Translations under genes and position numbers: made by a program | The notes under the pieces: model-generated | What the model saw: the letters and a program-made list of their open reading frames with translations, nothing else | The model's database searches: none | Told to the model about the DNA's origin: nothing | Shown here: one piece after another, positions 1,817-60,066 of the stretch | How the letters are laid out: the number at the start of each line of letters is the position of its first letter | Position numbering within the stretch: position 1 is the first letter of the stretch | Assembly (NCBI GenBank): GCA_041663665.1 | Contig: JBAYMG010000003.1 | Coordinates: forward strand, 3,991 to 67,990 | Direction of reading: 5' to 3' | DNA from: Candidatus Omnitrophota bacterium | GTDB taxonomy: Bacteria; Omnitrophota; Gorgyraeia; Gygaellales; Profunditerraquicolaceae | Length of the DNA: 64,000 nt

Positions 1817-2299
1817 ATGGCAAGAGTGAGTATACTTATGGGCAGCCAGTCAGATTTAGAAACGGTAAATGAAGCAATTAGTGTTTTAAAGGAATTTAAA
1901 GTAGATTTTGAGGCTAAAGTTTTATCGGCGCATAGAACACCTAAAGAGGTGGCGCAATATGTTCAGCAAGCGCCTAAAGCCGGAACAAAGGTTTTTATTG
2001 CTGCTGCCGGAATGTCTGCAGCGTTAGCCGGAGTGGTAGCTGCGCATACAACTTTGCCGGTCATTGGCATACCGATTGAAACAAAAAATTTAAAAGGCCT
2101 GGATTCGCTTTTGTCAACTGTGCAGATGCCCCCGGGGGTTCCGGTTGCTTGTATGGCGATTGGTAAGTCTGGTGCAAAGAATGCCGCACTTTTTGCGCTT
2201 GAAATTTTAGGTGTTACTGATCTTAAGATTAGTGCAAAATTAGCCGGTTATAAAAAGCAAATGCGCTTAAAGATAAAAAAGATTAAAATTAAATTATGA
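1817..2299 (+). CDS. purE: N5-carboxyaminoimidazole ribonucleotide mutase (PurE)
   Basis: MARVSILMGSQSDLETV...SAHRTP...AAGMSAALAGVVAA, 160 aa. GGGGGAAG Shine-Dalgarno 5 nt upstream. Confidence 0.93.
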   Translation: MARVSILMGSQSDLETVNEAISVLKEFKVDFEAKVLSAHRTPKEVAQYVQQAPKAGTKVFIAAAGMSAALAGVVAAHTTLPVIGIPIETKNLKGLDSLLSTVQMPPGVPVACMAIGKSGAKNAALFALEILGVTDLKISAKLAGYKKQMRLKIKKIKIKL

Positions 2300-3357
2300 G
2301 TTTGACCAGAATAGTTAAAGTTAATCCGCTTGATCCTGAAGAGGCAGGCATTAAGCAGGCAGCTAAAGTTATAGCCGGCGGCGGATTAGTAATTATTCCT
2401 ACTGAAACTGTTTATGGTGTTGCGGCGAATGCTTTGGACAAAAAGGCGCTCGACAGGCTTTATGAAATTAAAAAACGGCCTAAAGATAAACCTTTTGCCA
2501 TACTCATCGGACAGCTGGACAAGGTGGAGGAATTTGCTTGCGATATTCCGGCGGCTGCTTATAAATTGATCAATAAGTTTTGGCCGGGCCCTTTAACGAT
2601 TTTATTGAAAGCTAAAACTCAGGGCAAGGTTGGCTTGCGTATGCCGGATAATCAGGTTGCTTTAGATATTATTGCTCAAGCAGCAGTTCCGGTAGCTTGT
2701 CCTTCAGCTAATATCAGCGATAATTTAGCTCCGGCTGATTTTAAACAAGCAATTAAAGATTTGGATGGTTTGGTGGATTTGGCCATTGATGCCGGACAGG
2801 CAGCCTTAGGAATAGAATCCACTATTGTGGATTTAACAGTTATCCCGTTTAAAATAATTAGAAGCGGGGCGATAAAAGATGAAGATATAATTTCTACCGT
2901 TAAAAATAAGAAAGTACTTTTTGTCTGTACAGGTAATTCCTGCCGTTCGGTAATGGCTGAGGCGTATTTAAAGAAACTTTTAGCAAGAGACAGAAGATCT
3001 GATGTCCAGGTTAGTTCTGCCGGCATGATGGCGCTTGAGGGAATGGGTGCCAGTGGTGAGACGCGCCAGGTTTTGGAAGCAGAAGGTATAGATGCAGGAA
3101 CTCATCGTTCAGTAAGAGTGAGCAAAGAGTTAGTCGATCAGTCAGATATTATTTTGGTTATGGAAAAGATACATGAGGAGAGAATTCTGCAGCTTGCTCC
3201 GGAAGTAAAGAATAGGCTTTTTTTATTAAAAGAATTTGCTAAGATAAATGATAGTAATTTGAATATTTCCGATCCTATTGGAGGGTCTTTGGAATTTTAT
3301 CAAGAGGTGTTTTCGGTTATTAAAGATGCCGTAGAAAGGATAAGTAAGATTATATGA
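2296..3357 (+). CDS. fusion protein: L-threonylcarbamoyladenylate synthase domain (YrdC/TsaC, Sua5_yciO_yrdC) + C-terminal low-molecular-weight protein tyrosine/arginine phosphatase domain
   Basis: N-terminal ~190 aa IIPTETVYGVAANALD...WPGPLTILL (YrdC fold). C-terminal ~150 aa VLFVCTGNSCRSVMAEAY (CX5R P-loop) and ISDPIGG (DP motif) of LMW-PTP. Start overlaps the purE stop (ATGA). Confidence 0.85.
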   Translation: MSLTRIVKVNPLDPEEAGIKQAAKVIAGGGLVIIPTETVYGVAANALDKKALDRLYEIKKRPKDKPFAILIGQLDKVEEFACDIPAAAYKLINKFWPGPLTILLKAKTQGKVGLRMPDNQVALDIIAQAAVPVACPSANISDNLAPADFKQAIKDLDGLVDLAIDAGQAALGIESTIVDLTVIPFKIIRSGAIKDEDIISTVKNKKVLFVCTGNSCRSVMAEAYLKKLLARDRRSDVQVSSAGMMALEGMGASGETRQVLEAEGIDAGTHRSVRVSKELVDQSDIILVMEKIHEERILQLAPEVKNRLFLLKEFAKINDSNLNISDPIGGSLEFYQEVFSVIKDAVERISKII

Positions 3358-3854
3358 ACCCAATATTAATTGCTTCAGATCACGCCGGATTTGACTTAAA
3401 GGAAAAAATAATGACCTTTCTTATAAAAAAAGGAATTAGGGTCAAGGATTTGGGTACGTATTCTAAGGAGAGCTGTGATTATCCGGTTTATGCCTACGAA
3501 TTAGCTAAAAATATTTCTTCCGGTAAATATCAGCGCGGTATACTTATTTGTAAAAGCGGAATTGGAAATTCCATTGTTGCGAATAGATTGCGTGGTGTAC
3601 GCGCGGCACTTTGTCATTGTGTTAAAATAACTAAACTTAGCCGTGAGCATAATGATAGTAATGTTTTAGTAATGGGCTCAGGTTTTGTCAAAGCGGATCT
3701 GGCTAAAAGAATGGTTTTAGCCTGGATAAATACTAAATTTTTAGGGGGAAGGCATTTAAGAAGAGTGAAATTAATTGACAGCATTGATAAAAAAAATAAT
3801 AACTCGTGTCAGGTAGCGCAGTGTGCCCGTGTGGGCAAGGAGTGTGTAAAGTGA
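3354..3854 (+). CDS. rpiB: ribose-5-phosphate isomerase B
   Basis: [19 protein letters not shown]...[24 protein letters not shown]; RpiB/LacAB family. It has a ~20 aa Cys-containing C-terminal tail that overlaps the glyA start. Confidence 0.88.
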
Positions 3855-5098
3855 AAGATTTAAAACAAACAGATCCGGAAGTTTTTGCGGCAATTCAAAA
3901 AGAAGTTGTACGCCAGAATGATAATTTAGAGTTGATTGCTTCGGAGAATTTTACTTCGTTGGCGGTTTTAGAAGCACAAGGTTCAGTGTTAACTAATAAA
4001 TATGCTGAAGGCTATCCCGGTAAACGTTGGTATGGAGGATGCGAAAACGTCGATATTGTGGAGAGCCTGGCAATTGAACGGGCCAAAGCAATATTCGATG
4101 CTGAGCATGTCAATGTCCAGCCGCATTCCGGATCCCAGGCAAACATGGCGGTTTATTTTGCGGCGGTAAATCCCGGGGATACGGTATTGGCTATGGATTT
4201 GTCAGCCGGCGGACATCTTACACACGGCCATCCGCATAATTTTTCCGGAAGATTTTTTAAGATGGTTGGTTATGGCGTAGATAAAAAAACTGAAGCTTTG
4301 GATTATGACTCAATCCAGGAGTTAGCGAAGATACATAAGCCGAGAATGATTTTAGCCGGGGCTTCGGCATACCCAAGAATAATTGACTTTAAAAGATTCC
4401 GCCAGATTGCCGATAGTGTCGGGGCATATTTATTTGTCGATATGGCGCATATTGCCGGATTAGTTGCTGCAGGTTTGCATCCATCACCGGTGCCTTATGC
4501 CGAATTTGTTACTTCGACTACCCATAAAACTTTACGTGGCCCGCGCGGAGGGATTATTCTTTGTAAGAAAGAGTTTGCTAAAAAAATTGACAGCCAGATT
4601 TTTCCCGGAATTCAAGGCGGACCATTGATGCATGTAATTGCCGCAAAAGCTGTGGCATTCTGTGAAGTTTTAACTGATGAGTTTAAGCAATACCAGGTTC
4701 AGCTGACTAAAAATGCAGTGGAACTAGCTGTTTCTTTAGAGAAAAAGGGTTTTCGTATTGTTTCCGGAGGCACGGATACGCATTTAATGCTGGTGGATTT
4801 AAATTCGAAGAATATTACCGGCAGCGATGCTTCCAGGGTATTGGGGGAGGTTAATATAACCGTAAATAAAAACCTTATTCCTTTTGATCAAAAGAGCCCG
4901 TTAGTTACCAGCGGCATTCGCTTGGGAACTGCAGCGGTTAGTACACGTAAGATGAAAGAATCAGAAATGCAGAAAATTGCCAGCTTAATCAATGATGCGT
5001 TGGAAAATTATGACCGGCCTGAAAAATTAGCTCAGGTTAAAAAAGAGACTGTTGCTTTAACTAAAAAATTCCCAATATATTCGGAGTTATTAAAATAA
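3851..5098 (+). CDS. glyA: serine hydroxymethyltransferase
   Basis: Full-length SHMT ([14 protein letters not shown]-Lys region [12 protein letters not shown]). I prefer the GTG at 3851 (AAGGAG 10 nt upstream, N-terminus [12 protein letters not shown] matches SHMT length) over the track ATG at 3806. It overlaps the rpiB stop by 4 nt. Confidence 0.92.
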
Positions 5099-5099
5099 T

Positions 5100-5561
5100 A
5101 TGAAAAAAAAGATACTTGCACATAAACGGCCCAGTTGGGATGAATATTTTCTAGAGATGGCCTCTTTGGTGGCTAAACGGTCTACTTGTCTGCGCCGCAG
5201 GGTTGGAGCTGTTTTGGTAAGAGATAAAAGGATTTTAGCTACTGGTTATAATGGCGCACCCAGCGGTTTAAAACATTGTATTGAAATCGGCTGTTTGCGC
5301 CAGAAGTTGAAAGTTCCCTCTGGAGAGCGCCATGAATTATGCCGTGCACTGCACGCTGAACAGAACGCGTTGATTCAGGCATCTTTGCATGGTATAAGCG
5401 TCAAGGCAGCTATATTATATACTACCACCCAGCCTTGTGTTATTTGTGCCAAGATGCTGATTAATGCCGGGATAAAAGAGATTGTTATGACTCAAGGTTA
5501 TCCGGATAAAATGGCTATGGATTTTCTAAAGCAGGCAAAAATTAAAATAAGAAAAATATGA
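5100..5561 (+). CDS. dCMP deaminase (ComEB-type cytidine/deoxycytidylate deaminase)
   Basis: HAEQNAL zinc motif and PCVICAKML; 153 aa; dCMP deaminase family. Confidence 0.8.
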
Positions 5562-6028
5562 GATGTCCGTTTTGCGGGTATAAAGAAGATAAAGTCGTGG
5601 ATTCCCGTGCTACCGCTGAGGAGTCGGCAGTCCGGCGCAGAAGGGAATGTTTAAAATGCGGTAAGCGTTTTACTACTTATGAATATGTTGAAGAGAATTC
5701 ATTGCTGGTAATTAAGAAAGATGGCCGGCGCGAAGCATTTGACCGGAAGAAGATTCTGGCCGGTATAATCCGGGCTTGTGAAAAAAGGCCGGTGAGTGTT
5801 GAGAAGATGGATGATGTGGTTATTCAGGTTGAGCGTTTGATTGCTAAAAAAAGCGACCGTGAAGTTTCCTCGAGTAAAATAGGCGAGTTGGTTATGGAGA
5901 AGCTTAAGTCTATTGATGATGTTGCTTATGTGCGTTTTGCTTCGGTCTACCGGCAGTTTAAAGATGTCGGCCAATTTATGGTCGAATTAAAGGATATTTT
6001 GGGTAAGGATAAAAAGAAAAAGGGTTAA
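5558..6028 (+). CDS. nrdR: transcriptional repressor NrdR
   Basis: [22 protein letters not shown]...[20 protein letters not shown] zinc ribbon followed by an ATP-cone; start overlaps the upstream stop. Confidence 0.93.
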
Positions 6029-6029
6029 T

Positions 6030-6443
6030 ATGATTGAGATGGAGCTGAATAAAATTGTTATTGATGAGAAAAGGCATGACCAGCTGATTGTTTTAAAAGA
6101 AAAAGGGGGCAGCCGGGTTTTACCGATAGTTATCGGTTTAAATGAAGCCTCAGCGATTAAATTAAAAATCAGCGGTTTTAACCCGCCTCGGCCCTTGACT
6201 CACGATTTAATTTTTACCATGCTTAATAATCTTAATGCAACTATTGATAAGGTGCTCATTGATAAACTGGAAGAGAATACATTTCATGCTAAGATTATTA
6301 TTAAGGCCTCAGACGGCCAGTTTAAGACTGTTGACGCCCGGCCAAGCGATAGCATTGCTTTGGCAGTGAGGTTTCATGCACCAATATTTGTTGAAGAAGG
6401 AATTATTAATCAGTATGAGATTTTTAATAAAGATAAGCTTTAG
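6030..6443 (+). CDS. bifunctional nuclease (BFN/DUF151) domain protein
   Basis: LIVLKEKGGSRVLPIVIGLNEASAIKLKISGFNPPRPLTHDLIFTML, the typical BFN fold sequence; 137 aa. Confidence 0.7.
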   Translation: MIEMELNKIVIDEKRHDQLIVLKEKGGSRVLPIVIGLNEASAIKLKISGFNPPRPLTHDLIFTMLNNLNATIDKVLIDKLEENTFHAKIIIKASDGQFKTVDARPSDSIALAVRFHAPIFVEEGIINQYEIFNKDKL

Positions 6444-6469
6444 CTTAAATCCTTAGCCCTACACATTTA

Positions 6470-7960
6470 ATGCTTGTTCGTTGCACTCACAAATATTTCA
6501 CTAAATCAAAACTTATGATGCTTAAATTCAGCGAAAAAGAAAAAGATATTTTAAAGCCGGTTTATAACTTTGCTTTAGCTAAAAAAGTAAAGTTATTTCT
6601 TGTCGGGGGGGCTTTGCGTGATTTAATCCTTAAAAGAACGAAAGTAAATCCGGATTTTGATTTTTGTTTAAAAAAAGGAGCATTAACGTTTGGCCGCCGG
6701 CTCGCCCAGGAGATAAGAGCGGCTTTTGTAGTGTTGGATGAAGAGCATGCTGCTTGCCGCCTGGTTAAGAAAATTGACGGCCAAGTTTATACATTTGATC
6801 TATCGGATTTTCGTGCGGAAACTTTAGAAAGAGACCTGTTGCACCGGGATTTTACGATAAATTCTTTAGCTTTAGAGTTAAAGCATGTTTTTACAGGGCA
6901 AGACTTAGAGGAGTTAATTATTGACCCGAATTCCGGAAGAGGTGACATAAAGCGTAAAGTAATAAAAGTTACCAGCAAAGATTCTTTTAGCGAGGATCCT
7001 TTGAGAATCCTGCGGGCTTTCAGTTTAAGTTGTATTTTAAAATTTAATTTAGACAGAGAAACATTAGCTTTATCCAAAAAAGAAAGAAATAAGATTAGCG
7101 GTGTTTCAGCTGAACGTGTTCGCGAAGAGTTATTTAAAATCCTGGATAGCGGTTCAGCTTATGATTCTTTAGTAATTCTGGATAGACTTAAGATCCTGGA
7201 GATTATTTTTCCAGAAATTAAACCCATGCGCAAGATCGGGCAGGGGCCGCATCATCACCTGGATGTTTGGCAGCACACTTTGGAAACATTGAATCAGTTT
7301 GAGCTGATATTGAAATCGGTTAAGCGCGAAGAGATAAACAGTTATCTTAATGAAGAGGTTTCCGGGCTACGTAAAAGATCAAGCCTTTTAAAATTAGCTT
7401 GCATCTTGCACGATGTGGGGAAGCCTAAAGCATTACGCAGAGAAAAAGGGAAGATTATTTTTCACGGCCATGAGCGTGTGGGTTTGGGCTTAACCCGCGT
7501 TATTTGCCGCAGATTAAAATTATCCAATGAGGAATGCCGCTGTTTAGAGAGAATTGTGCTTTGGCATTTAAGGCCGGGATATTTGGCTTCAAGCAAGCGT
7601 CCTACCCAACGGGCGATCTTTCGTTATTTCCGGGACACAGGCAGCGATGCGTTAGCTGTGCTTTTGTTGTCTTTAGCTGATCAGCGTGCAACCAAAGGCC
7701 CTTTGGCTACGGCTCTTTCACGCGTCTGCCATGAGCGGACAGTTAAAGCGTTAATTAATAAATTATTAAAGAAAAACAGCGAAATTAAGCCAATGCGTTT
7801 TTTAAACGGCAATGATCTTATGAATAAATTTAAATTAGCAGCTTCGCCTTTGATTGGCAAGGTGCTTAGCCGATTAGAGGAGTCACAGGCTATCGGTATG
7901 ATTAAAAATAAAAAAGAAGCTTTAAGCCTGGCGGCAAAAATAATTAAACAACAGAAATGA
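6470..7960 (+). CDS. cca: CCA tRNA nucleotidyltransferase (PolyA_pol head + HD domain)
   Basis: LFLVGGALRDLILKR head domain and HD motif HHHLDVWQHTLE...LHDVGKP. The true start may be an internal ATG at 6515/6518, since there is no SD at 6470. Confidence 0.85.
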   Translation: MLVRCTHKYFTKSKLMMLKFSEKEKDILKPVYNFALAKKVKLFLVGGALRDLILKRTKVNPDFDFCLKKGALTFGRRLAQEIRAAFVVLDEEHAACRLVKKIDGQVYTFDLSDFRAETLERDLLHRDFTINSLALELKHVFTGQDLEELIIDPNSGRGDIKRKVIKVTSKDSFSEDPLRILRAFSLSCILKFNLDRETLALSKKERNKISGVSAERVREELFKILDSGSAYDSLVILDRLKILEIIFPEIKPMRKIGQGPHHHLDVWQHTLETLNQFELILKSVKREEINSYLNEEVSGLRKRSSLLKLACILHDVGKPKALRREKGKIIFHGHERVGLGLTRVICRRLKLSNEECRCLERIVLWHLRPGYLASSKRPTQRAIFRYFRDTGSDALAVLLLSLADQRATKGPLATALSRVCHERTVKALINKLLKKNSEIKPMRFLNGNDLMNKFKLAASPLIGKVLSRLEESQAIGMIKNKKEALSLAAKIIKQQK

Positions 7961-12970: not shown

Positions 12971-13906
12971 ATGAAAATAAAAAATACCGAAATTAAAGTG
13001 ATGCTGGGTGATATTACTGAGCAAGAAGTAGATGCTGTTGTTAATGCGGCTAATAATAAATTATTGATGGGTGGAGGTGTAGCTGGGGCGATTAAGAAAA
13101 AAGGCGGCCAGATTATTGAAGATGAAGCAATAAAAGATGGGCCTATTGAAATTGGGCAAGCGATTGCAACTGGTGCAGGTAAACTCAAAGCAAAATATGT
13201 GATCCATGCTGCAACTATGGGTATGGATTTTAAGACTGATGAAATTAAAATTCGTAATGCTTGCCGGAGCTCGTTGGATTTAGCCGGGAAATTAAAAATT
13301 AGTTCAATTATCTTTCCGGCTTTAGGTTGCGGTACCGGAGGATTTCCTTTGTTAGCTTCAGCTAAGATTATGGCTCAAGAGCTTTTAAAAGACTTGCGTC
13401 AGGAAAAGTCAGGGTTAAAAGAGGTAACCTTCTGTTTGAATAATCAGGAAGCAGTTGCTGTTTTTAACAAAGGTGTATTAGGCTATTTAGAGTATGTAAC
13501 CACAAAATTATCCGGCGGTCCGTATGTTACAGTGGATGCAATTATTGAATTATCGGAAGGAATCGTGATTATCGAGCGTAGTAATCCGCCTTTTGGCTGG
13601 GCACTGCCTGGAGGATTTGTAGATTATGGAGAAAGCTTGGAGGAAGCAGTAATTAGAGAGACAAAAGAAGAAACTAATTTGGATTTAACTGAAATTAAAC
13701 AGTTTCATACTTATTCTAACCCGCAGCGTGACTTGCGATTTCACACAATCGGAACTGTATTTATTGCCAAAGCTAAGGGTATTCCTAAGGCTGGTGATGA
13801 TGCAAAGGGCCTAAAAATTGTTAAATTAAGTGAGATAGAGAAGCTGCAACTTGCCTTTGATCATAAGAAAATTCTTCAGGATTACCTTCAGGCAAAACAG
13901 GCTTAA
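12971..13906 (+). CDS. Macro domain (ADP-ribose/O-acetyl-ADP-ribose binding) fused to a NUDIX hydrolase (ADP-ribose pyrophosphatase-like)
   Basis: N-terminus [29 protein letters not shown]...HAAT (macro domain). C-terminus Nudix box [24 protein letters not shown]. Confidence 0.8.
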
Positions 13907-15807
13907 CCTTCGCGTAATTGTTTTTCGGCGTCAACAATATCGCGGTTAATTACGCGGATGGTTTCTTTGATTTTATCTTTAAGTAAATAGGAAGCAACCG
14001 GGGCACCGGAGATTTCCCTTAAAACTTGCACGCTCATCCGAAAATACCGGACTACTTCACCTTCATCGCAATCCGTCAGTAATAATGTTTTATCAAAACT
14101 TGTCCCGCGTAGCCAGGCTTCCATAGCAGAACAGAGATGAAAATAGGGAAGCTTGCTAAAAGGATAAATTTTATAGCGTCTTTCCTTATCTTTTATCTGG
14201 TCATAGGTTTCTTCGCATGTTTTTTTAAGCCAGCGGCTGGATTTGGATATGCTTGATGGCATGCGTTGATTTTTGCGGGGGTCGAAGACAACAGAGGCCG
14301 CTACTACGCCTAATCCGAATTCATCTTGTTGTTCAAGGATGTTCTGTTCGTATAATTCCGAGAGGACTAATTCATAGCCATAAACAGTTTTAGCAAATTT
14401 TCCTTTGTTGGTAAGTTTTCCGTCAGAGATATAGTTTAAGTCTTTGAGTAGTTTAAGTTTTGCATCCAAGAGATTTAATGCATGTTTCTGTTCGTTTTTA
14501 CGTGATTGGTAATAATGTAAAGAAAGAGGATAAATTTTAAATAAATCCTCCTGATATTTTTCATAAAGATTAAGAATAGTGGCATAAGAAGTATTTAATT
14601 GGCTTTTTACTTCCTCAGGCTTGCCATAAATTATTCTGCGTACATCATCAAAGGTCATTCTTTGTGAGTTAACTCGCGTATAGACAAACCCTTCTTTGTC
14701 AATACCGCGCCTTCCGGCCCTGCCGGCCATTTGGAAAAAATCGCGGGTTTTTAAATTACGGACATAGGTACCGTAAAATTTACGCAGGCCGTCAAACATA
14801 ACCGAGCGGCTGGGCATATTGATCCCCAGGGCAAATGTTTCGGTGGTAAAAATTACTTTAAGCAAGCGGCTGGTAAAAAGCCGTTCGATTACTTCTTTTA
14901 ATGTGGGCAGCATCCCGGCGTGGTGATAGGCAATACCGCGTTGAATGAGGGGGTAAAGCATTTGGGCTGATTGTTCATTTTTTAAGTTAAATCTTTCCAG
15001 CAGATCTTCATACATCTGGGTAATTGCCCGGCTTTCTTTAGCGTCTAAGAATCTAAATCCATATAATTCCTGAGCAAGCTCTTCAGCGCGTTTACGGCTA
15101 AAAACAAAATAAATTGCTGGAAGCCCGTCATTATTACGCAAATAATCAATTAGCGAGCTTAATCTGTTAGGTTTATTTGAGCGGATGCGTTTAAGGTGCT
15201 CGATTTTATCGACGATTTCATTTTGGCACTGGAAAAGGAAATGCAAGGGGACCGGGCGGTTGTCTTCAATAACTACTTGGACGCTCTTATTATGGATTGA
15301 TTCGATCCAGGCGGCAAACTGCTTGATATTCGGGATCGTCGCTGACAGTCCAAGCAGCTTCATGTGTTTAGGGAGGAAAATCAGTGATTCTTCCCAGACT
15401 GTCCCGCGTTCAGGATTATCAATGTAATGAATTTCGTCAAAAATAACCCAGGTGTATTTATCCAGGCTTTGCGGTTCATCCAATATTTTATTACGTAGAA
15501 TTTCGGTAGTCATGATTAAAACCGGGGCTTGTGGGTTAATTGAAACATCACCGGTTAGGATGCCGATATTATCTTGAAATTGTCCTTGGAAGTCGCGGAA
15601 TTTTTGATTGGAGAGGGCTTTGATCGGTGCAGTATAGATAACTCCTAAATTATTAATAATCGCGTTGCTAATAATATATTCGGCAATAGCGGTTTTTCCA
15701 GCTCCGGTTGGCGCTGAAACAATTACTGAGTGCCCATTGTTTATATGGTCAATGGCTTCCTGCTGGAATCGATCGTAAATCATGAATCCATTATAATCTA
15801 AAATCAT
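13903..15807 (-). CDS. Ski2/HelY-like DEAD/DEAH-box superfamily-2 RNA helicase with a DSHCT-like C-terminal domain
   Basis: Q-motif FQQEAI, motif [10 protein letters not shown], motif II FDEIHY, SAT motif GLSAT. This is the only minus-strand CDS in the window. Start is uncertain (ATG at 15807, 15786 or 15843; track TTG at 15993 would overlap the divergent gene by 150 nt). Confidence 0.8.
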
Positions 15808-15841
15808 TGATTTATCTATGTAAAAATAATATAATGCATCC

Positions 15842-16393
15842 ATGGGGTATGAGGTTGCGCTTAATAAAGCTTGGGATAATTTGGCTAACCAGAAGGCGCC
15901 CAATAATTTATCAGTAAAATTTATGGGCGATGAGTATAGTATAGACATTGTTCTAAAGCGTATCCTTTCTCTATCTTGTAACACTCCGGTCAAGGATTTT
16001 CCGGCTATCTTAATTTTGCATTATTTGCTGCAGAAATTAAAGGGGATGCCTGCAATAACTGGCCTCTGGCTTACTTTCAGGGAGTTTTCCGGGATTGAAG
16101 GTTATTATGACGCTTATCATAAGCGTTCAATTGAGCCGTTAATCCGTAAATATGGCAAGCATCCGGATGCCATTAAAGATGTTTTAAACCGGTTACCGGG
16201 CAGGCTTGCCAGCGGCGGAGATGTAGGTATTATTATTGAGGTTTTTGAGGATATTCCGGTATTGATCAAACTTTGGGAGCAGGATACGGAATTTGGCCCG
16301 GATGCCAATATGTATTTTGACGCAAGCATAAAAGACATTTTTTGTATTGAGGATATTATAGTTTTAGCTCAACTGGTTAGCAGTCAGCTTTAG
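15842..16393 (+). CDS. hypothetical protein, DUF3786-like
   Basis: 183 aa, no catalytic motif recognised. N-terminus YEVALNKAWDNL and the SLSCNTPVKDFPAILILHYL segment resemble the DUF3786 family as I recall it. An internal start at 15923 is possible. Confidence 0.45.
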   Translation: MGYEVALNKAWDNLANQKAPNNLSVKFMGDEYSIDIVLKRILSLSCNTPVKDFPAILILHYLLQKLKGMPAITGLWLTFREFSGIEGYYDAYHKRSIEPLIRKYGKHPDAIKDVLNRLPGRLASGGDVGIIIEVFEDIPVLIKLWEQDTEFGPDANMYFDASIKDIFCIEDIIVLAQLVSSQL

Positions 16394-24223: not shown

Positions 24224-24700
24224 GTGAATATGGCGGGTGAAATTTATCTGACACAGGAAGGTTATGAAAAGCTGGTTAATGAATTAGAGTATTTAAAAAC
24301 CGTTAAGCGCCACCAACTTTCAAGAGCCGTAGGCGAGGCGCGGGCACACGGGGACATTAGTGAAAATGCTGAATATGATGCAGCTAAAGATGCCCAGGGT
24401 CATAATGAGAAACAAATTGTGGAGTTAGAAGATAAATTGGCGCAGGTGCGCATTCTTGATAAGAATATCTCCAGCGATGAAGTTTTAATCGGGGCGACAG
24501 TAAAGCTAAGGGATATGGATACTGATGAAGAGTTGGAATATACTTTAGTTTCGGAGCTGGAGGCAGATTATAACCGGGGTAAGATTTCTGTGAATTCTCC
24601 GGTGGGAGGTGGTTTGTTGGGTTATAAGGAAAATGAAATAGCGGAAATAAAAATTCCTGCGGGGATTTTAAAATATAAAATAGTTAAGATATCGCGTTAA
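24224..24700 (+). CDS. greA: transcription elongation factor GreA
   Basis: LTQEGYEKLVNELEYLKTVKR...AHGDISENAEYDAAKD; 158 aa. Confidence 0.95.
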   Translation: MNMAGEIYLTQEGYEKLVNELEYLKTVKRHQLSRAVGEARAHGDISENAEYDAAKDAQGHNEKQIVELEDKLAQVRILDKNISSDEVLIGATVKLRDMDTDEELEYTLVSELEADYNRGKISVNSPVGGGLLGYKENEIAEIKIPAGILKYKIVKISR

Positions 24701-24709
24701 GCTTAAAAA

Positions 24710-24877
24710 ATGCAAGAGAAGATCGGACATTTGAAAGTAAATATTTTTAAGATTAAGAATCGGGCAGGGTTTGCGGCTATTTGCTTTGAGCATCTTACTG
24801 AAGGTAAGACTCCTCAGGAAGCCTACGAGCGTATGGTTAAGGCTATACGCAGAAGCAATCACAAGCAGATAGGTTAA
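24710..24877 (+). CDS. small hypothetical ORF (55 aa), not in the ORF track
   Basis: ATG 24710 to TAA 24875-24877, in the only long (>200 nt) gap of this region. Peptide MQEKIGHLKVNIFKIKNRAGFAAICFEHLTEGKTPQEAYERMVKAIRRSNHKQIG. No SD seen; coding status unproven. Confidence 0.25.
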   Translation: MQEKIGHLKVNIFKIKNRAGFAAICFEHLTEGKTPQEAYERMVKAIRRSNHKQIG

Positions 24878-24911
24878 ACAGGTTGGTTGTTCTATTAATC
24901 GATAAAGCCAG

Positions 24912-25292
24912 ATGAAAAAAACTATTTTTAGTTTGTTGATTATTTTTCTAATTTGTATAGTTTCCATTGTTTTTGCCGGTCAGGATTTTTCACGAAAATT
25001 TAAGGTCATACGCGTTCCTTTGGGAAAGGTTATCGCTATACCTTTGGACTCAAATCCCTCTACGGGATTTAGCTGGCAGTTAGTAAAAATATCGGATAAG
25101 ATGATTCTAGAGTTTGTAAAAAAAGAATATATCGCTAATTCAGGAAACACAGTGGGTTCTGGGGGGATAGAGAGCTGGAGTTTTAAAACTCTTAAACACG
25201 GTACGGCAATTATTGTCTTAGAGTATGTTCGAGCTTGGGAAAAAGATTTAGCTACAGCAAAAAAAGAAGAGTTTACTGTTTTTGTTGAATGA
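24912..25292 (+). CDS. secreted chagasin-family (I42) peptidase inhibitor-like protein
   Basis: Signal peptide MKKTIFSLLIIFLICIVSIVFA. The NPSTGFSWQL motif matches the chagasin NPTTGY(S/T)W signature. 126 aa. Confidence 0.55.
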   Translation: MKKTIFSLLIIFLICIVSIVFAGQDFSRKFKVIRVPLGKVIAIPLDSNPSTGFSWQLVKISDKMILEFVKKEYIANSGNTVGSGGIESWSFKTLKHGTAIIVLEYVRAWEKDLATAKKEEFTVFVE

Positions 25293-26594: not shown

Positions 26595-27689
26595 ATGTTT
26601 TGGTATACTTATTTTAAAGGGGGAATTCCGGTGGTTTCGCTAAAAGAGCACTTATGTAATTTGGTTACCGGCAAAACAAAAGGTTTGGTGGCTGGGCTTT
26701 TGAGGGGTTTTTTATTTGTGCTTTCTTTAATTTATGGTTTGATTGTAGTTATTTTGGCAGGGTTCTATAGGGCCAGGCCGGTTAAATTTAAAGCTAAAGT
26801 TATCAGTGTAGGTAATATTACCTTGGGGGGTACAGGTAAAACGACTTTTGTTGAGTATTTGGCTGGTAAATTAAATTTAGAAGGAAGGAAGATTGCAGTA
26901 TTAAGCCGCGGTTATAAAAGTAAAAAGCATGACGGCTTGCAAGCCAGGGGTGATGAGCCGGCTATGTTAGAAAAGAAATTGCCATTTGCTCTAGTGTTAG
27001 TTGATAAGAATAGGGTCAGGTCGGCTCTTAAGGCGACTAAAGATTATGCGGTAGATACCTTAATTCTTGATGACGGTTTGCAGCAGTGGCGGATATTTAA
27101 AGATTTAGAGATAGTGGCTATTGATGTCGGCAATGCTTTTGGAAATTCCCGTATACTTCCGGCTGGTTTCTTGAGGGAGCCGCTAAGTGCTTTAAAGCGT
27201 GCAGATGTCTTTCTGTTGACTCAAGGCTTTCTTGGGCAAGATGTAAATGAATTGACGGCTAAATTAAAACGCATAAATTCTCAAGCCCTAATTATTGAAT
27301 CCGTACATCAACCTGTGGGGTTTAGCCCCCTGGATAACCCGGATGAGCTGTTAAGTTTAGATTTCTTTAGAGGCAAAAGTGTAATGATATTTTCTGGTAT
27401 TGGCAATCCCCTGGGGTTTGAAAATAGCATTAGTTCATTGGGAGCCAATATTGCTAAAGCAATTAGATTTAGCGACCATCATGATTATACTATTGAGGAT
27501 GTCGATAAGCTTATTGTTGAAGCACAACGAAAGAAATTAGAAGCAGTTATCACAACCGAAAAGGATGCTGTTAAAATCAGGCAGTTAGGGATAAAGGATT
27601 CCGGCATATCGGTCTTAGGCATAGAGTTAAAGGTAATTAAAAATGAAGCCGAACTCGATCGTAGATTATTCAGCTTGTATTCTTTTTAG
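26595..27689 (+). CDS. lpxK: tetraacyldisaccharide 4'-kinase
   Basis: P-loop VGNITLGGTGKT; 364 aa. The in-frame GTG at 26631, with SD AAGGGGGAA 7 nt upstream, is a better start if the promoter at 26563-26591 is real. Confidence 0.88.
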   Translation: MFWYTYFKGGIPVVSLKEHLCNLVTGKTKGLVAGLLRGFLFVLSLIYGLIVVILAGFYRARPVKFKAKVISVGNITLGGTGKTTFVEYLAGKLNLEGRKIAVLSRGYKSKKHDGLQARGDEPAMLEKKLPFALVLVDKNRVRSALKATKDYAVDTLILDDGLQQWRIFKDLEIVAIDVGNAFGNSRILPAGFLREPLSALKRADVFLLTQGFLGQDVNELTAKLKRINSQALIIESVHQPVGFSPLDNPDELLSLDFFRGKSVMIFSGIGNPLGFENSISSLGANIAKAIRFSDHHDYTIEDVDKLIVEAQRKKLEAVITTEKDAVKIRQLGIKDSGISVLGIELKVIKNEAELDRRLFSLYSF

Positions 27690-29568
27690 GTTAGTAAGCT
27701 TTTTCACAGCTTACTTACCTTTAAATTTCAGTCTTTTTTTTGGCAGGAGGCTGGGTGATCTTATTTATCTATTTGATAGGAAACATCGCTTGATTGCCTA
27801 TACGAATATCCGGCACGCTTTAGCTGATAAAATTAATTGGCAGAGATGCAAAAAGATTACTCGTTCTGCTTACCAGTCTTTTGGCCAGAATCTTATGGAA
27901 ATTTCTTTCATCGGGCGTATAGATAAACAGTATCTTGAAAAATATATCCAAATTGAGAATAAAGATAACATCGATGCTGCTTTTAAGAGAGGTAAGGGGG
28001 TAATTTTCCTGGCGGTTCATGAAGGAGATTGGGAGCTTTCTAATATTATTTGTGCCAATTTAGGTTTTCCTTTTACTTTGTTTGTGCGCGACCAGGGGCT
28101 TCCCCGGCTTAATGATTTACTTAATTCATATCGGCTTAAACGGGGGGCAAAGATTATTCATAAAAAAGCCGGAGTACGCCAATTAATTGAAGTGCTTAAA
28201 AATAACCAGGCGATCGGGATGACTACCGACCAGGGCGGCAAGAATGGACAACTGGTTAGATTTTTTGGGCAAGATGCTTCAATGGCTGTGGGTGCTGTAA
28301 AGTTGGCATTAAAGTATGATTGTTCAATAATTCCGGTTTTTTATACGCGGATTAAAGGTCCTTATACTAAAGTATTTTTGGATCAAGTTTATACGGTTAC
28401 CAGAAGCGAAAACCCTGAGAATGATTTAAAGGATAATTTGCAGAGAATAATTAGTGTCTATGAAAATTATATCCGGAAATATCCTTATGAATATCTCTGG
28501 ACTTACAAGGTATGGAAGTACGGCAAGGATAAGGAAATCTTAATTCTTTCTGATGGAAAAACCGGCCATTTGCGTCAATCAGAAGGATTAGCTAAATTAA
28601 TTAACCAACAGTTGTCCAGCCGGGGCATAAAAACTAATTTGTTTATTAAAGAAGTAAAATTCGGCCGCGAGGCCTTAGTTTGGCTTCAAATAGCCAAAGC
28701 CATCGGCCGCATTGATTGTTTGCGCCATGCTTTAACTGATGAAAGCTGGCAAAGTTTAATGAGTTCTAAACCGGATTATATTATTTCTGCCGGAGGCTTG
28801 ATGAGTGTTCTAAATTATCTTTTAGCCCGGGAAAACCAGGCAAAATCAATTTGCTTAATGAAGCCGTCGAATATCAGCTTAAAAAAATTTAATTTAGTAA
28901 TTGTTCCGGAACACGACGGGAATTTTAAAAGAAAGAACGTCGTAATTACTGAAGGGGCGCTTAATTTAATTGACGCTGATTATTTAAATCAGAAACTAGA
29001 GAGAATAAGGCGCTCTGGCCTTATCAAAGCAGGTTTACTTAATCCTTGTATTGGGGTATTAATTGGAGGAGATAGTAAGAATTTTTCTCTCGATCAAAAG
29101 ATAATAACTAAGCTTGCTGTTCAAATTAAGAAATCTGCTGAAGAGTTAAATGCCAGCCTTTTGATTTCTACTTCACGTCGTACTTCTCCGGAAGTCCAGG
29201 AGCAGGTAAAAAATGAATTTGCCAATTATCCACGCTGCAAGTTGTTGGTTATTGCCAATGAGAATAACAATCCGGATGTTGTTGGAGGAATAATCGGATT
29301 AAGTAATATAATAATCAATTCTCCGGAAAGTATTTCCATGATTTCTGAAGCCGCGGCAGGAGAGAAATACGTTGTCGTATTTAAGGCTAGAGGCCTGAGT
29401 AGAAAGCATGAACGTTTTTTAAAAAAATTTCAAACCAAGAAGTATATCTATTTTAAACAGATTGAAGAATTAGCTGATTGTCTTAACTGGATATGGCAAA
29501 ATAAACCTCAAGTTAATTCTCCCCGGGATGATTTAAAAGTAATTGAGGGTTTAAATAAAATAATATGA
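27643..29568 (+). CDS. fusion: lipid A biosynthesis late acyltransferase (LpxL/HtrB family) + C-terminal ELM1-like (DUF1022) domain
   Basis: N-terminal ~300 aa: TM anchor, then LAVHEGDWELSN (H(X)4D/E-type acyltransferase motif) and the MTTDQGG region typical of Kdo2-lipid IVA acyltransferases. C-terminal ~340 aa starts ILILSDGKTGHLRQSEGLAKL, resembling the SDGkxGHenQ opening of the Mito_fiss_Elm1 family. 47-nt overlap with lpxK. Confidence 0.65.
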   Translation: MKPNSIVDYSACILFRLVSFFTAYLPLNFSLFFGRRLGDLIYLFDRKHRLIAYTNIRHALADKINWQRCKKITRSAYQSFGQNLMEISFIGRIDKQYLEKYIQIENKDNIDAAFKRGKGVIFLAVHEGDWELSNIICANLGFPFTLFVRDQGLPRLNDLLNSYRLKRGAKIIHKKAGVRQLIEVLKNNQAIGMTTDQGGKNGQLVRFFGQDASMAVGAVKLALKYDCSIIPVFYTRIKGPYTKVFLDQVYTVTRSENPENDLKDNLQRIISVYENYIRKYPYEYLWTYKVWKYGKDKEILILSDGKTGHLRQSEGLAKLINQQLSSRGIKTNLFIKEVKFGREALVWLQIAKAIGRIDCLRHALTDESWQSLMSSKPDYIISAGGLMSVLNYLLARENQAKSICLMKPSNISLKKFNLVIVPEHDGNFKRKNVVITEGALNLIDADYLNQKLERIRRSGLIKAGLLNPCIGVLIGGDSKNFSLDQKIITKLAVQIKKSAEELNASLLISTSRRTSPEVQEQVKNEFANYPRCKLLVIANENNNPDVVGGIIGLSNIIINSPESISMISEAAAGEKYVVVFKARGLSRKHERFLKKFQTKKYIYFKQIEELADCLNWIWQNKPQVNSPRDDLKVIEGLNKII

Positions 29569-32822: not shown

Positions 32823-33852
32823 AAGGCACAGTTATAAACGTATTTTAATATTTAACGTTAATTGGCTGGGGGATGTTTTATTTTCTACCGCAACCATAAG
32901 GAATATTCGCATGAACTATCCTGATAGTTATCTTGCCTGCATAATTCCTAGCCGTTGTTCTGCGATATTAAAAGGCAATCCCTATCTGGATGAAGTGATT
33001 CTCTTTGATGAGAAAGATAAACATCGGGGAGTGTTCGCCAAGCTTAATTTTGTCAATCTTCTTAAAAACAAAGAATTTGATGCTGTTTTTCTGTTACACC
33101 GCTCGTTTAGCCGGGCACTCATCTGTCGCTTGGCCGGTATTGTTAACCGCATCGGGCATATTACTAAGAAGCGCGCATTTCTTTTGACTAAGCGGATTGT
33201 TCCTCCGAAAGTTGATTCTCTGCATCGTATAGATTATTATCTGGATATAATCAAGAAGGATGGGCTGCGTGTTGTAGACCGGCACCTGGATTTCTTTTTT
33301 GCCGTTGAAGATGAAGAAGCTGTTGATAAGTTTTTAATTAAAAATTCAGTTTTCAAGGATAATTTTGTAATCGCGCTTAATCCCGGAGGAAATTGGCTGC
33401 CTAAACGCTGGCCTCGGGAATATTGGGCAGAATTGGCGGATAAATTAATTAGTCAGTTAAAAGCGAAAGTAATTGTTACCGGTAGTTCAGCTGATTTATT
33501 ATTGGTTAATCAGATTAAAGAGAATATGCGGGAGTTACCGTTAGTTGCTTGCGGGGTTTTTAATATAAAGCAACTGGGGGCATTAGCAAAAAAGGTTGAC
33601 CTTTTTATTACTGCCGATACCGGCCCATTACATATTGCTAATGCTGTGGGCGCTAAAAAAATAATTGCGATATTTGGGCCGACTGCCAAAGAGATTACCG
33701 GTCCGTATCCGCCTACGAATGTGATTATTTTACAAAAAAATACAGGGTGTTTGATACCCTGCTATAAGGTTGATTGTCAGGATAACCGTTGTATGAAGGC
33801 AGTTACTCCTGATGATGTTTTTGCTGAAGCCAGAAAAGTAATAAAAAAATGA
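32815..33852 (+). CDS. glycosyltransferase family 9 (LPS heptosyltransferase-like)
   Basis: ILIFNVNWLGDVLFSTATIRNIRMNYP, ADTGPLHIANAVG; 345 aa. Confidence 0.85.
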   Translation: MDKRHSYKRILIFNVNWLGDVLFSTATIRNIRMNYPDSYLACIIPSRCSAILKGNPYLDEVILFDEKDKHRGVFAKLNFVNLLKNKEFDAVFLLHRSFSRALICRLAGIVNRIGHITKKRAFLLTKRIVPPKVDSLHRIDYYLDIIKKDGLRVVDRHLDFFFAVEDEEAVDKFLIKNSVFKDNFVIALNPGGNWLPKRWPREYWAELADKLISQLKAKVIVTGSSADLLLVNQIKENMRELPLVACGVFNIKQLGALAKKVDLFITADTGPLHIANAVGAKKIIAIFGPTAKEITGPYPPTNVIILQKNTGCLIPCYKVDCQDNRCMKAVTPDDVFAEARKVIKK

Positions 33853-40549: not shown

Positions 40550-41092
40550 ATGGATAAGCTAGCTATTGGCGAAGAATTGTGTGTGCGTTTTAAGAAAATT
40601 AAACTTCTCCTCTTGGATGTTGACGGAGTTCTAACCGATGGGAGGATAATTTATGATTCGCAGGGCAGAGATTCAAAATTTTTTGATGTGCATGATGGTT
40701 TGGGCGTTTTTGTTTTACATAAATCCGGAATTAAGACGATTTTGATTACAGCTAAAAGTTCAAAAACCATAAAGCCGCGTGCTCGCGATATGCATGTTGC
40801 TCAGGTCTTCGCCGATATTTTTCCAAAAACTGTTGTTTTGGGCAAAATTTTGATGAAATACAAAGTTTCATCGGATGAGGTTTGTTTTATTGGCGACGAT
40901 TTAGTGGACTTAGCGCTGATGCGAAAAATCGGTTTACCGATTGCAGTCGCTAATGCTTCCGCGCCGATTAAAGAAGCAGCTGTTTATGTTACTAGCCATT
41001 CCGGCGGACGCGGGGCAGTTAGGGAAGTTGCCGAGTTAATTCTTAAGTCACAGGACAAATGGAAAGATATCTTGCATTTTTATGAAGCATAA
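40550..41092 (+). CDS. kdsC: Kdo-8-phosphate phosphatase (HAD superfamily, subfamily IIIA)
   Basis: LLLLDVDGVLTDGRIIYDSQG...FIGDDLVDL; 180 aa. Confidence 0.85.
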   Translation: MDKLAIGEELCVRFKKIKLLLLDVDGVLTDGRIIYDSQGRDSKFFDVHDGLGVFVLHKSGIKTILITAKSSKTIKPRARDMHVAQVFADIFPKTVVLGKILMKYKVSSDEVCFIGDDLVDLALMRKIGLPIAVANASAPIKEAAVYVTSHSGGRGAVREVAELILKSQDKWKDILHFYEA

Positions 41093-60009: not shown

Positions 60010-60066
60010 TATCTAACCGTAGTTAATAAGTGTTTTTCGGTGTGCCTTTATAGGCAAGGAGGCAGG

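Follow-up and report, generated by a model that had tools for sequence, protein, structure and literature searches.

The t6A modification is among the few that occur universally in tRNA, and the enzyme of its first step, TsaC/Sua5, is universal too. To our knowledge, the architectures described for this family are TsaC, Sua5, HypF, TobZ, TsaN and the Mycoplasma TsaC-HemK fusion. In Bacillus subtilis, the Sua5/TsaC2 protein YwlC and the phosphatase YwlE are encoded in that order upstream of rpiB (ywlF) and glyA. There, ywlD lies between ywlC and ywlE, and ywlG between ywlF and glyA, so these genes are close together but not, as in a preliminary description of the present locus, directly adjacent.

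The TsaC subtype carries Thr or Ser before the SxN motif (Thr138 in Ec-TsaC), and in the published model it arises repeatedly from Sua5 through loss of the SUA5 domain (PMC10321239). Single-domain TsaC proteins of Aquificae, Brachyspira, Lactococcus and Erysipelothrix have the Sua5-type Pro at this position and neither linker nor SUA5 domain (PMC10321239). Without its linker and SUA5 domain, the catalytic domain of Pyrococcus Sua5 is unstable and inactive (PMC6004061). In the phosphatase family, YwlE and DARP have Thr (Thr11) at P-loop position 5, which determines specificity, and the pTyr-specific LMW-PTPs have Ile there (PMC7772506). In B. subtilis, TsaD is phosphorylated on arginine, and its ClpCP-dependent degradation is governed by McsB and YwlE (PMC7546277). 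Gram-negative-type bacteria are generally held to lack phosphoarginine machinery (bioRxiv 10.64898/2026.01.13.697720).

A hydrolase and a YrdC domain are also found in one chain in HypF, the [NiFe]-hydrogenase maturation carbamoyltransferase (PMC9654439). HypF is built of acylphosphatase, Zn finger, YrdC-like and Kae1-like domains, so its hydrolase fold is acylphosphatase rather than the LMW-PTP fold of the protein described here, and its domain order also differs.

A two-domain gene within a housekeeping cluster

The window analysed here is a stretch of 64,000 nt from a Candidatus Omnitrophota bacterium (GCA_041663665.1, contig JBAYMG010000003.1, positions 3,991-67,990, forward strand). It encodes a TsaC-type domain and an LMW-PTP domain in a single polypeptide (Table 1), as the preliminary description had stated; Pfam, TIGR00057 and a reading of the intact catalytic motifs agree on this. 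Direct reading of the sequence finds no stop codon inside the ORF, and the protein is identical to a public-collection entry (P0001) named 'L-threonylcarbamoyladenylate synthase [Candidatus Omnitrophota bacterium]'. A frameshift or hidden stop, which would make this two genes, is excluded because all 120 closest relatives keep both domains at 351-372 aa.

Table 1. Features of the fusion gene and its neighbours (window coordinates)
Feature	Position	Strand	Details
purE (AIR carboxylase), upstream of fusion	1817..2299	+	Pfam PF00731, 4.7e-60
TsaC-LMW-PTP fusion gene	2296..3357	+	one ORF, 353 aa, ATG to TGA
TsaC-type threonylcarbamoyl-AMP synthase domain	2323..2892 (aa 10-199)	+	K59/R61, S137/N139, Pro136
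Short inter-domain junction	2869..2913 (aa 192-206)	+	helix predicted at aa 195-203 (AlphaFold2 model)
LMW-PTP-fold cysteine phosphatase domain, YwlE clade	2914..3336 (aa 207-347)	+	PF01451 LMWPc
P-loop C211-T-G-N-S215-C216-R217-S218 (CX5R-S)	2926..2949	+	sequence; Ser at specificity position 5
D326-P327, general-acid DP motif of D-loop	3271..3276	+	sequence; aligns to DP of YwlE
rpiB (ribose-5-phosphate isomerase B)	3354..3854	+	PF02502, 6.2e-53; TIGR01120, 166 bits vs cut-off 139
glyA (serine hydroxymethyltransferase), GTG start	3851..5098	+	PF00464, 3e-170; public gene call of 415 aa from same start

Successive genes of the cluster share 4 nt. The purE stop and the fusion ATG overlap in ATGA (2296-2299), the fusion stop and the rpiB start in ATGA (3354-3357), and the rpiB stop and the glyA start in GTGA (3851-3854), the last provided that glyA begins at GTG 3851, the start used by the public call for this contig; in the mechanical ORF list glyA begins earlier, at 3806. 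The two downstream overlaps had been pointed out before, and the one with purE adds to them. Promoter-like and terminator-like sites show no excess across the cluster, which together with the overlaps is consistent with a single transcription unit.

When all 61 large ORFs of the 64-kb window were compared with Pfam, neither a McsB-type kinase nor a ClpC pArg reader was found, nor were tsaB, tsaD or tsaE genes. An LPS pathway is encoded in this genome, and the host, unlike B. subtilis, is a Gram-negative-type bacterium. Several further fused genes are present in the same window.

The two halves and their junction

The domain scan proposed earlier places both domains well above their cut-offs. 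For the N-terminal half, PF01300 (Sua5_yciO_yrdC) matches aa 25-191 (E 1.4e-50, 171.7 bits vs cut-off 25.1), and the NCBIfam equivalog TIGR00057 (L-threonylcarbamoyladenylate synthase) reaches 197.2 bits against a cut-off of 123.2. The motifs PTETVYG (aa 35-41), K59-K-R61, P136-S137-A-N139, S175-T176 and R189-x-G191 can be read directly, and the KxR...SxN tetrad and associated motifs align to Sua5 structures. This half is nearer to TsaC/Sua5 than to YciO, the non-t6A paralogue, and far nearer to Sua5/TsaC2 (2e-42) than to E. coli TsaC (2e-7). A set of 53 diverse fusions with only 33-52% identity shows no variation at S137, N139, S175, R189 or G191, and 48 of them have K59.

A difference from B. 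subtilis YwlC is that the fusion lacks the ~40-residue Sua5 linker (PGM / HY motifs) and has no Pfam match to the SUA5 domain PF03481; the Sua5 interface motif KPSPT is not found, the fusion reading ISDNLAPAD there. To describe the gene as ywlC joined to ywlE is thus right about the two families, but not about the whole of YwlC. The residue before SxN is the Sua5-type Pro136 (CPSAN) instead of the Thr or Ser of single-domain TsaC1, PSAN occurs in 120/120 close homologues, and the GVE-like motif G172-I-E174 is kept. In the 53 diverse fusions the signature position is occupied variously (P27/T19/S4/A3), and there is no conservation of E174. Pro136 and the missing linker and SUA5 domain fit the model in which TsaC arises from Sua5 by SUA5 loss. 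They are features shared with the Pro-signature single-domain TsaC proteins, although the latter stand alone, whereas the C-terminus of the fusion runs on into the phosphatase domain.

The C-terminal half belongs to the LMW-PTP superfamily by family model and by its LMW-PTP fold (PF01451 at aa 207-347, E 7.8e-31, 107.6 bits vs cut-off 23.2). The catalytic Cys, Arg and Asp of YwlE and its second P-loop Cys are all found here. CTGNSCRS occurs in 119/120 close homologues, and the catalytic residues are invariant in all 53 diverse fusions (C211, N214, C216, R217, S218 and, in 53/53, the DP motif). Of the proteins with solved structures, sequence comparison finds the YwlE arginine phosphatases nearest to this half (Geobacillus YwlE 4pic, 4.6e-25; B. 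subtilis YwlE 1zgg, 3.1e-18), ahead of Wzb/PtpA-type enzymes (1e-15 or weaker) and YfkJ (1e-8). A rough neighbour-joining tree puts the YwlEs of known structure among syntenic Bacillota LMWPc genes. At position 5, Ser215 retains the hydroxyl but is not the Thr of YwlE, and the same holds in 119/120 close homologues. The 53 diverse fusions have T32/S15/M3/I2/V1 there; two-domain fusions are about evenly split between Ser and Thr, and 31/32 three-domain fusions (see below) have Thr.

The halves are joined by a short segment that the AlphaFold2 model predicts with pLDDT 89-95 (pTM of the model, 0.85). Between G191 and C211 lie 19 residues in every one of the 63 close homologues aligned, and 18-19 residues in 35 of the 53 diverse fusions. 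Together with the pTM value, the fixed junction length is a hint that the two domains form a rigid unit.

Recurrence of the fusion and its neighbourhood

Each of the 120 closest homologues, from independent assemblies and 120 database clusters, has both Pfam domains in 351-372 aa, and wherever the source names the organism it is Candidatus Omnitrophota. Fusions account for at least 137 of the best 150 cluster representatives at 50% identity, at least 105 clusters at this level are two-domain fusions, and 18 fused two-domain loci come from different phyla and projects. By identity the two halves are conserved equally (71% vs 75% in close homologues; 39% vs 39% in diverse fusions).

Bacillota have a three-domain version of 467-653 aa (YrdC + Sua5_C + LMWPc) in which the same two enzymes follow in the same order. 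These proteins are database entries only, named just 'L-threonylcarbamoyladenylate synthase'. They keep the SUA5 domain (PF03481 present), so that the junction is SUA5|LMWPc as opposed to YrdC|LMWPc in our protein, and their P-loop is YwlE-like. The neighbour-joining tree places them within unfused Bacillota Sua5 sequences, an indication that the fusions were independent, and unfused Bacillota relatives share the downstream rpiB. By this phylogenetic and domain evidence, there were two or more fusion origins, which differ in their junctions.

The order YrdC, LMWPc, rpiB (then glyA, dcd, nrdR) occurs in Omnitrophota, Planctomycetota, Verrucomicrobiota, Pontiella, Bacillota and a Desulfovibrio MAG. 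The conserved neighbourhood of the preliminary description therefore extends over several phyla, its first two genes being fused or separate: among 34 loci with both domains, 21 are fused and 13 have the domains adjacent but separate. A cultured isolate in which Sua5, YwlE-like and RpiB genes are separate is included in these loci, and the equivalent unfused order is present in Maledivibacter halophilus and other Bacillota; in Pontiella and a Clostridia MAG, too, each of the two domains has its own gene. A related MAG (L075) carries the pair in different reading frames with an 8-nt overlap, so that one indel could switch a locus between the fused and separate states. Most related loci have rpiB 3' of the LMWPc coding sequence, and the phosphatase gene is tied to it as tightly as to tsaC/sua5.

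Other members of this neighbourhood have merged as well, with different partners: the cluster of Pontiella (L012) contains an RpiB-SHMT (rpiB-glyA) fusion, and MG259 of Mycoplasma genitalium is a TsaC-HemK fusion (PMC4615747). The Pontiella case pairs enzymes without an obvious shared reaction, which cautions against over-reading fusions.

Possible meaning of the fusion

We propose that neighbouring genes of an old conserved housekeeping cluster (tsaC/sua5, a ywlE-like phosphatase gene, rpiB and glyA) merged into a vertically inherited bifunctional gene that places two enzymes on one chain, a reading to which we give a probability of roughly 60%. The N-terminal half (aa 1 to ~200) would convert threonine, bicarbonate/CO2 and ATP to threonylcarbamoyl-AMP and thereby begin the synthesis of t6A37 in tRNA. 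The C-terminal half (aa ~205-353) would be a competent YwlE-clade cysteine phosphatase in which Cys211 attacks the phosphate, Arg217 binds it and Asp326 acts as general acid. Both activities would be made in fixed 1:1 amounts from a translationally coupled purD-purE-fusion-rpiB-glyA unit. We infer the two activities, the kind of substrate and, if there is one, a coupling of the halves. The phosphatase probably acts on phosphoproteins. Our best guess is a phosphoarginine-type substrate, because position 5 keeps a hydroxyl (Ser, or Thr in about half of related fusions) and is not the Ile of tyrosine phosphatases; Ser at this position and a Gram-negative-type host with LPS count against it. The earlier assignment as a protein-arginine phosphatase goes beyond what is established: YwlE-clade similarity and synteny fit it, but position 5 is Ser215 and no McsB-type kinase lies in the 64-kb window. 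A caveat to the two-enzyme view is that the Sua5-type Pro, together with the instability of the Pyrococcus Sua5 catalytic domain (PMC6004061), suggests that the halves are perhaps less independent than it assumes.

The phosphatase could instead serve the t6A machinery (TsaD/TsaB/TsaE, the TsaC domain, nearby translation factors), keeping it dephosphorylated and stable or active, with the fusion as a tether. We consider this fairly unlikely. The control of TsaD by McsB and YwlE in B. subtilis argues for such coupling, as do two or more fusion origins with distinct junctions, a tsaC/sua5-LMWPc adjacency kept across distant phyla and a tightly constrained junction length. However, B. subtilis YwlE has many substrates and so is not t6A-specific there (PMC7546277), the kinase and tsaB/D/E genes are absent from the 64-kb window, the phosphatase gene is as tightly linked to rpiB, and functionally unrelated cluster neighbours such as rpiB-glyA fuse too. 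The preliminary description had taken the fusion as physical evidence for a link between t6A modification and this phosphatase class. Recurrent independent fusions and the TsaD data leave a functional link plausible, but the ready fusion of cluster or genome neighbours (rpiB-glyA, TsaC-HemK and the other fusions of the window) makes the fusion weaker evidence than was claimed; the association hints at a link and does not prove one. We consider rather improbable a structural or chemical role in TC-AMP synthesis, in which LMWPc replaces SUA5 and linker as stabiliser or lid, or its P-loop handles a small phosphorylated molecule or by-product on behalf of the TsaC site, similar to the way in which the HypF acylphosphatase domain feeds the YrdC domain. 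The constant Pro136 of the close homologues, the greater similarity to Sua5/TsaC2, the retained G172-I-E174, the unstable isolated Sua5 catalytic domain, the short, helical, confidently modelled junction and the HypF precedent would all suit this role. Yet SUA5 and LMWPc have no detectable homology (hhalign probability 0.6%), the KPSPT motif is missing, and the signature residue and E174 drift among diverse fusions. Moreover, sister lineages (Pontiella, the Clostridia MAG) manage with separate genes, the three-domain fusions retain SUA5 as well, and the fully conserved Cys-Arg-Asp triad favours a true phosphatase over a scaffold. The hydrolase of HypF provides its YrdC domain with substrate, whereas no such hand-over is known or evident for threonine/bicarbonate-dependent TC-AMP synthesis.

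Two further readings concern what the C-terminal domain is and whether the gene is real. That the domain is a thioredoxin-coupled arsenate reductase (ArsC, pI258 type) is very improbable: its P-loop CTGNSCRS is identical to that of pI258-type ArsC, and NCBIfam TIGR02691 and NF010053 match weakly, but at 51.1 bits (cut-off 174.3) and 50.4 bits (cut-off 215) they stay far short of their thresholds, and the assignment is effectively refuted. C211 and C216 are the only cysteines of the domain, which is thus without the downstream Cys pair required by the ArsC redox relay; the phosphatase DP motif is invariant, the nearest relatives are YwlE-type phosphatases, and the context is housekeeping with no ars operon. 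We give practically no weight to an assembly or sequencing artefact joining two genes through a missing base or lost stop. The L075 overlap shows that a single indel could make the switch, but no support for an artefact was found here, and the many independent clusters and loci with the same two-domain protein, from different phyla and projects, and its constant junction length speak against one.

Beyond the bifunctional reading, it is possible, if doubtful, that the phosphatase is integral to t6A synthesis in PVC-group bacteria, either as an obligatory stabilising or gating partner of the SUA5-less domain or as a switch that keeps TsaD and its partners dephosphorylated. If so, the 'arginine phosphatases' of the YwlE clade would have an ancestral role tied to translation, one that goes well past the Gram-positive McsB/ClpC stress system and reaches phyla thought to be without phosphoarginine signalling. 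The recurrent tie of t6A synthesis to the YwlE clade across phyla complements the single B. subtilis report on McsB/YwlE and TsaD stability (PMC7546277). As a natural experiment, the fusion also bears on the requirements of a Sua5-type catalytic domain after SUA5 loss, and the conservation of YwlE-clade phosphatases in Gram-negative-type PVC bacteria raises the question of which kinase, if any, opposes them. The biological weight is moderate because neighbour-gene fusions occur without obvious functional meaning and the mechanism is only proposed.

The phosphatase fusion is not mentioned in the searched reviews of the TsaC/Sua5 family and is apparently undescribed in papers; the architecture is a new, uncharacterised variant of known enzymes that is common in public data. 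NCBI and JGI label these proteins TC-AMP synthases only, so the phosphatase half has been overlooked, and they would be better described as bifunctional.

Architecture of the TsaC-LMW-PTP protein

As the preliminary description had held, the fusion is a single uninterrupted ORF, with no internal stop in its DNA (2296..3357). A Pfam scan places PF01300 (Sua5_yciO_yrdC) at residues 25-191 (E 1.4e-50) and PF01451 (LMWPc) at residues 207-347 (E 7.8e-31), both with scores far over the curated cut-offs. The phosphatase motifs that had been called intact, a CX5R P-loop and a DP, are both in the sequence. The 4-nt overlaps are likewise real: ATGA between purE and the fusion, ATGA between the fusion and rpiB, and GTGA between rpiB and glyA, the last of which presupposes that glyA begins with the GTG at 3851, the start used by the public gene call for the same contig. 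A longer alternative glyA ORF, from 3806, overlaps in another frame the C-terminal tail of RpiB, which runs for 18 residues past the Pfam domain (window 3798-3854) and holds three cysteines.

The N-terminal half is, as judged from its sequence, a TC-AMP synthase domain. With the NCBIfam equivalog TIGR00057 (L-threonylcarbamoyladenylate synthase), the protein reaches 197 bits (cut-off 123), and this half holds the motifs PTETVYG, K59-x-R61, S137-x-N139, S175-T176 and R189-x-G191. Compared with structures, it matches Sua5/TsaC2 at 2.3e-42 and 2.7e-39, YciO at 1.9e-14 and E. coli TsaC at 2.3e-7. Pro136 occupies the position at which Pro is the signature of Sua5 and Thr/Ser that of TsaC (Pichard-Kostuch et al., PMC10321239); in the diverse two-domain fusions (YrdC+LMWPc), this residue is Pro in 27, Thr in 19, Ser in 4 and Ala in 3. 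However, the protein is not simply ywlC joined to ywlE, as the preliminary description implied: by Pfam, the Sua5 linker and SUA5 domain are absent, and the KPSPT interface motif is missing from the sequence. TsaC has been argued to have arisen repeatedly from Sua5 via loss of SUA5, and a few single-domain exceptions bearing Pro are listed (PMC10321239). The fusion matches this pattern, but a phosphatase replaces the C-terminus.

An entire LMW-PTP fold makes up the C-terminal half, and 53 fusions of only 33-52% identity all keep C211, N214, C216, R217, S218, D326 and P327. Among solved structures it is closest to the YwlE arginine phosphatases of Geobacillus (4.6e-25) and B. subtilis (3.1e-18). 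This nearness makes the arginine phosphatase class named in the preliminary description a candidate, but the specificity position carries Ser215 and not Thr. At this position, the fifth of the P-loop, YwlE and Drosophila DARP have a Thr that gives a preference for phosphoarginine, whereas Ile gives a preference for phosphotyrosine, and T11I switches specificity (PMC7772506). Ser215 is near-invariant across the close Omnitrophota clade. Two-domain fusion clusters have Ser about as often as Thr and seldom Ile, and 31 of 32 three-domain fusions (YrdC+Sua5_C+LMWPc) have Thr. Because Ser and Thr interchange freely, a hydroxyl at this position may be the property that matters, which makes a YwlE-like specificity our best guess for the phosphatase half. 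Arsenate reductase (ArsC), which has the same P-loop, was rejected: family scores fall far under the cut-offs, and the domain has two cysteines only, the relay cysteines being missing.

The two halves are equally conserved (71% vs 75% in the close homologues, 39% vs 39% in the diverse fusions). An AlphaFold2 model of the whole protein has a pLDDT of 86.2 and a pTM of 0.85, with the helical junction modelled well, and the spacing from G191 to C211 is 19 residues in all close homologues and 18-19 in 35 of the 53 diverse fusions.

The families of both domains are well known, and the protein is already public (e.g. UniRef100_A0A2J0KWU1), labelled by database sources as TC-AMP synthase only. A phosphatase fusion is unmentioned in the t6A papers El Yacoubi 2009, Thiaville 2014, Su 2022, Pichard-Kostuch 2023 and Jin 2023 (TsaN), and the YrdC/TsaC-LMW-PTP architecture is undescribed in the YwlE/phosphoarginine phosphatase literature searched, where subscription journals are thinly covered. 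No solved structure spanning both domains was found. The fusion is therefore an apparently undescribed architectural variant of known enzymes, not a new kind of system.

Coordinates of the fusion, its phosphatase motifs and related fused or adjoining genes
Feature	Source	Position	Strand	Details
Fusion ORF	window	2296..3357	+	ATG to TGA, 353 aa; mechanical ORF list
P-loop C211-T-G-N-S-C-R217-S	window	2926-2949	+	read from sequence
D326-P327 motif	window	3271-3276	+	read from sequence
Other fused genes	window	12971-13906, 27643-29568, 29565-31658, 33849-35855, 41082-41966
RpiB-SHMT ORF	L012, Pontiella sp. MAG	4266-5945		559 aa; RpiB N-terminus, serine hydroxymethyltransferase C-terminus
tsaC	L012, Pontiella sp. 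MAG	3084-3749		unfused
LMW-PTP gene	L012, Pontiella sp. MAG	3792-4250		unfused
tsaC + LMW-PTP pair	L075, uncultured Clostridia MAG	5995-7051		8-nt overlap, different frames

Distribution and origin of the fused form

A protein deposited from a Candidatus Omnitrophota MAG (P0001) is identical. In a collection of 5.8 billion proteins, the 120 best relatives are 351-372 aa long and 68-78% identical to the fusion, have both Pfam domains in every case, and come from Omnitrophota wherever the source gives an organism; CTGNSCRS is found in 119 of them and PSAN in all 120. When the representatives of 50%-identity clusters were searched exhaustively, 1,472 proteins matched at E≤1e-30, and the best 150 were classified: some 105 have two domains, a length of 330-400 aa and identities reaching down to 34%, and 32 are three-domain proteins of 467-653 aa (8 of the 32 Pfam-confirmed). 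Because the fused architecture is conserved across independent database relatives and loci, an assembly or sequencing artefact is ruled out.

A profile of the 53 diverse fusions (A2) was run against a single genome for each GTDB species, and frame continuity was then checked at each locus. Two-domain fusions occur in Omnitrophota, Planctomycetota (Planctomycetales, Phycisphaerae, Sedimentisphaerales, Pirellulales and Lacipirellulaceae), Verrucomicrobiota, Candidatus Stahlbacteria and one Clostridia MAG, and three-domain fusions in three Bacillota MAGs. At 13 further loci, tsaC/sua5 and the phosphatase gene are separate but adjoining. Cultured Maledivibacter halophilus, for example, encodes a Sua5 of 351 aa and a YwlE-like protein of 151 aa, unfused and followed by rpiB, and unfused pairs are also seen in Pontiella, a Desulfovibrio MAG and a Clostridia MAG (L075). 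The L075 pair, a 201-aa TsaC with the Thr signature and a 152-aa LMW-PTP with the P-loop CTGNVCRS, is one indel short of a fusion.

The conserved neighbourhood proposed in the preliminary description holds, in that the order tsaC/sua5-phosphatase-rpiB(-glyA) recurs in several phyla, fused or separate. In most loci, rpiB lies downstream of the phosphatase coding region, often followed by glyA, dCMP deaminase and nrdR, and the order purD-purE-fusion-rpiB-glyA-dcd-nrdR-BFN is retained whole in Omnitrophota. In B. subtilis, ywlD and ywlG presumably intervene within ywlC-ywlE-ywlF-glyA. The main clades are the same in rough neighbour-joining trees built from either half. In these trees, the three-domain fusions nest among unfused Bacillota sequences, the unfused Pontiella pair adjoins a fused Verrucomicrobiota protein, and the solved YwlE proteins sit among syntenic Bacillota phosphatases. 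Within an old tsaC/sua5-ywlE-rpiB-glyA neighbourhood, fusion has taken place several times and at two different junctions, possibly with some splits as well.

A possible connection between t6A synthesis and the phosphatase

The preliminary description took the fusion as physical evidence of a functional link between t6A modification and this phosphatase class, and our results uphold that claim in part. In its favour, the association of tsaC/sua5 with the phosphatase is kept across distant phyla, independent fusion events took place at two junctions, and the junction geometry is constrained. In the single experimental precedent, B. subtilis TsaD is arginine-phosphorylated, and McsB and YwlE control its ClpCP-dependent degradation (PMC7546277). 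However, rpiB is linked to the phosphatase gene just as tightly, and other neighbours also fuse. In Pontiella (L012), it is other members of this cluster that have merged, rpiB-glyA being one ORF while tsaC and the phosphatase are separate, and in Mycoplasma genitalium TsaC is fused to HemK, another neighbour (PMC4615747). The window itself holds further fused genes: Macro+NUDIX, lipid A acyltransferase+ELM1-like, GT4+GT9, a doubled GT9 heptosyltransferase and LptC+LptA. Together they suggest that the genome tends generally to merge neighbouring genes. Stop/start overlaps are numerous within the window, and where operons are this compact and translationally coupled, the joining of two genes can be close to neutral. 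Neutral fusion is a serious alternative to a functional link. A Pfam scan found no protein kinase, t6A partner or ClpC gene among the 61 large ORFs of the 64-kb window, and phmmer and tblastn found no second copy of tsaC or LMW-PTP there.

A structural explanation is also conceivable, since the catalytic domain of Pyrococcus Sua5, when stripped of its linker and SUA5, is neither stable nor active (PMC6004061); a Sua5-type domain that has lost SUA5 might then depend on a rigidly attached phosphatase domain. We consider this unlikely. SUA5 and LMWPc show no homology (hhalign 0.6%), sister lineages encode the two domains as separate genes, interface residues vary across the diverse fusions, and the three-domain fusions still have SUA5, so that the evidence is mostly against a simple replacement of SUA5 by the phosphatase domain. 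The fusion lends itself to clean tests both of a possible connection between t6A and the phosphatase and of the way in which a Sua5-type domain functions once SUA5 is gone.

Genomic surroundings and minor observations

Housekeeping genes of the purine, LPS/Kdo, isoprenoid, shikimate and similar pathways lie in the window, those for LPS including LpxK, Kdo transferase, KdsA/B/C/D, heptosyltransferases and LptC/A/B. No tRNA genes or Rfam families were found in the 64 kb, and internal promoters and terminators are in no excess over shuffled sequence. The plus strand carries 59 of the 61 large ORFs, the exceptions being a DEAD/DSHCT helicase (13903-15993) and a 99-aa ORF (24668-24967), and GC skew is positive in all 2-kb bins (0.08-0.29). 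Three ORFs lack a Pfam match at E≤1e-5: 30-533 (167 aa), 52165-52545 (126 aa) and 47140-48867 (575 aa), the last with a signal-like hydrophobic N-terminal stretch. Genes for T2SSE-family secretion/pilus ATPases (60040-61326 and 62586-63821) flank a class II aminoacyl-tRNA synthetase gene (61328-62572).

LMWPc-like domains were also met in a different setting, the 1679-aa Elusimicrobiota MAG protein MFI5349297.1 (P0158), in which PEP-utilizers and PPDK_N domains are followed by five LMWPc-like repeats. Several of its P-loops are degenerate (CAGNACRS, CSFNTSRS, CTHNTSRS, CAANHSRS), and its cluster also holds a 3117-aa relative.
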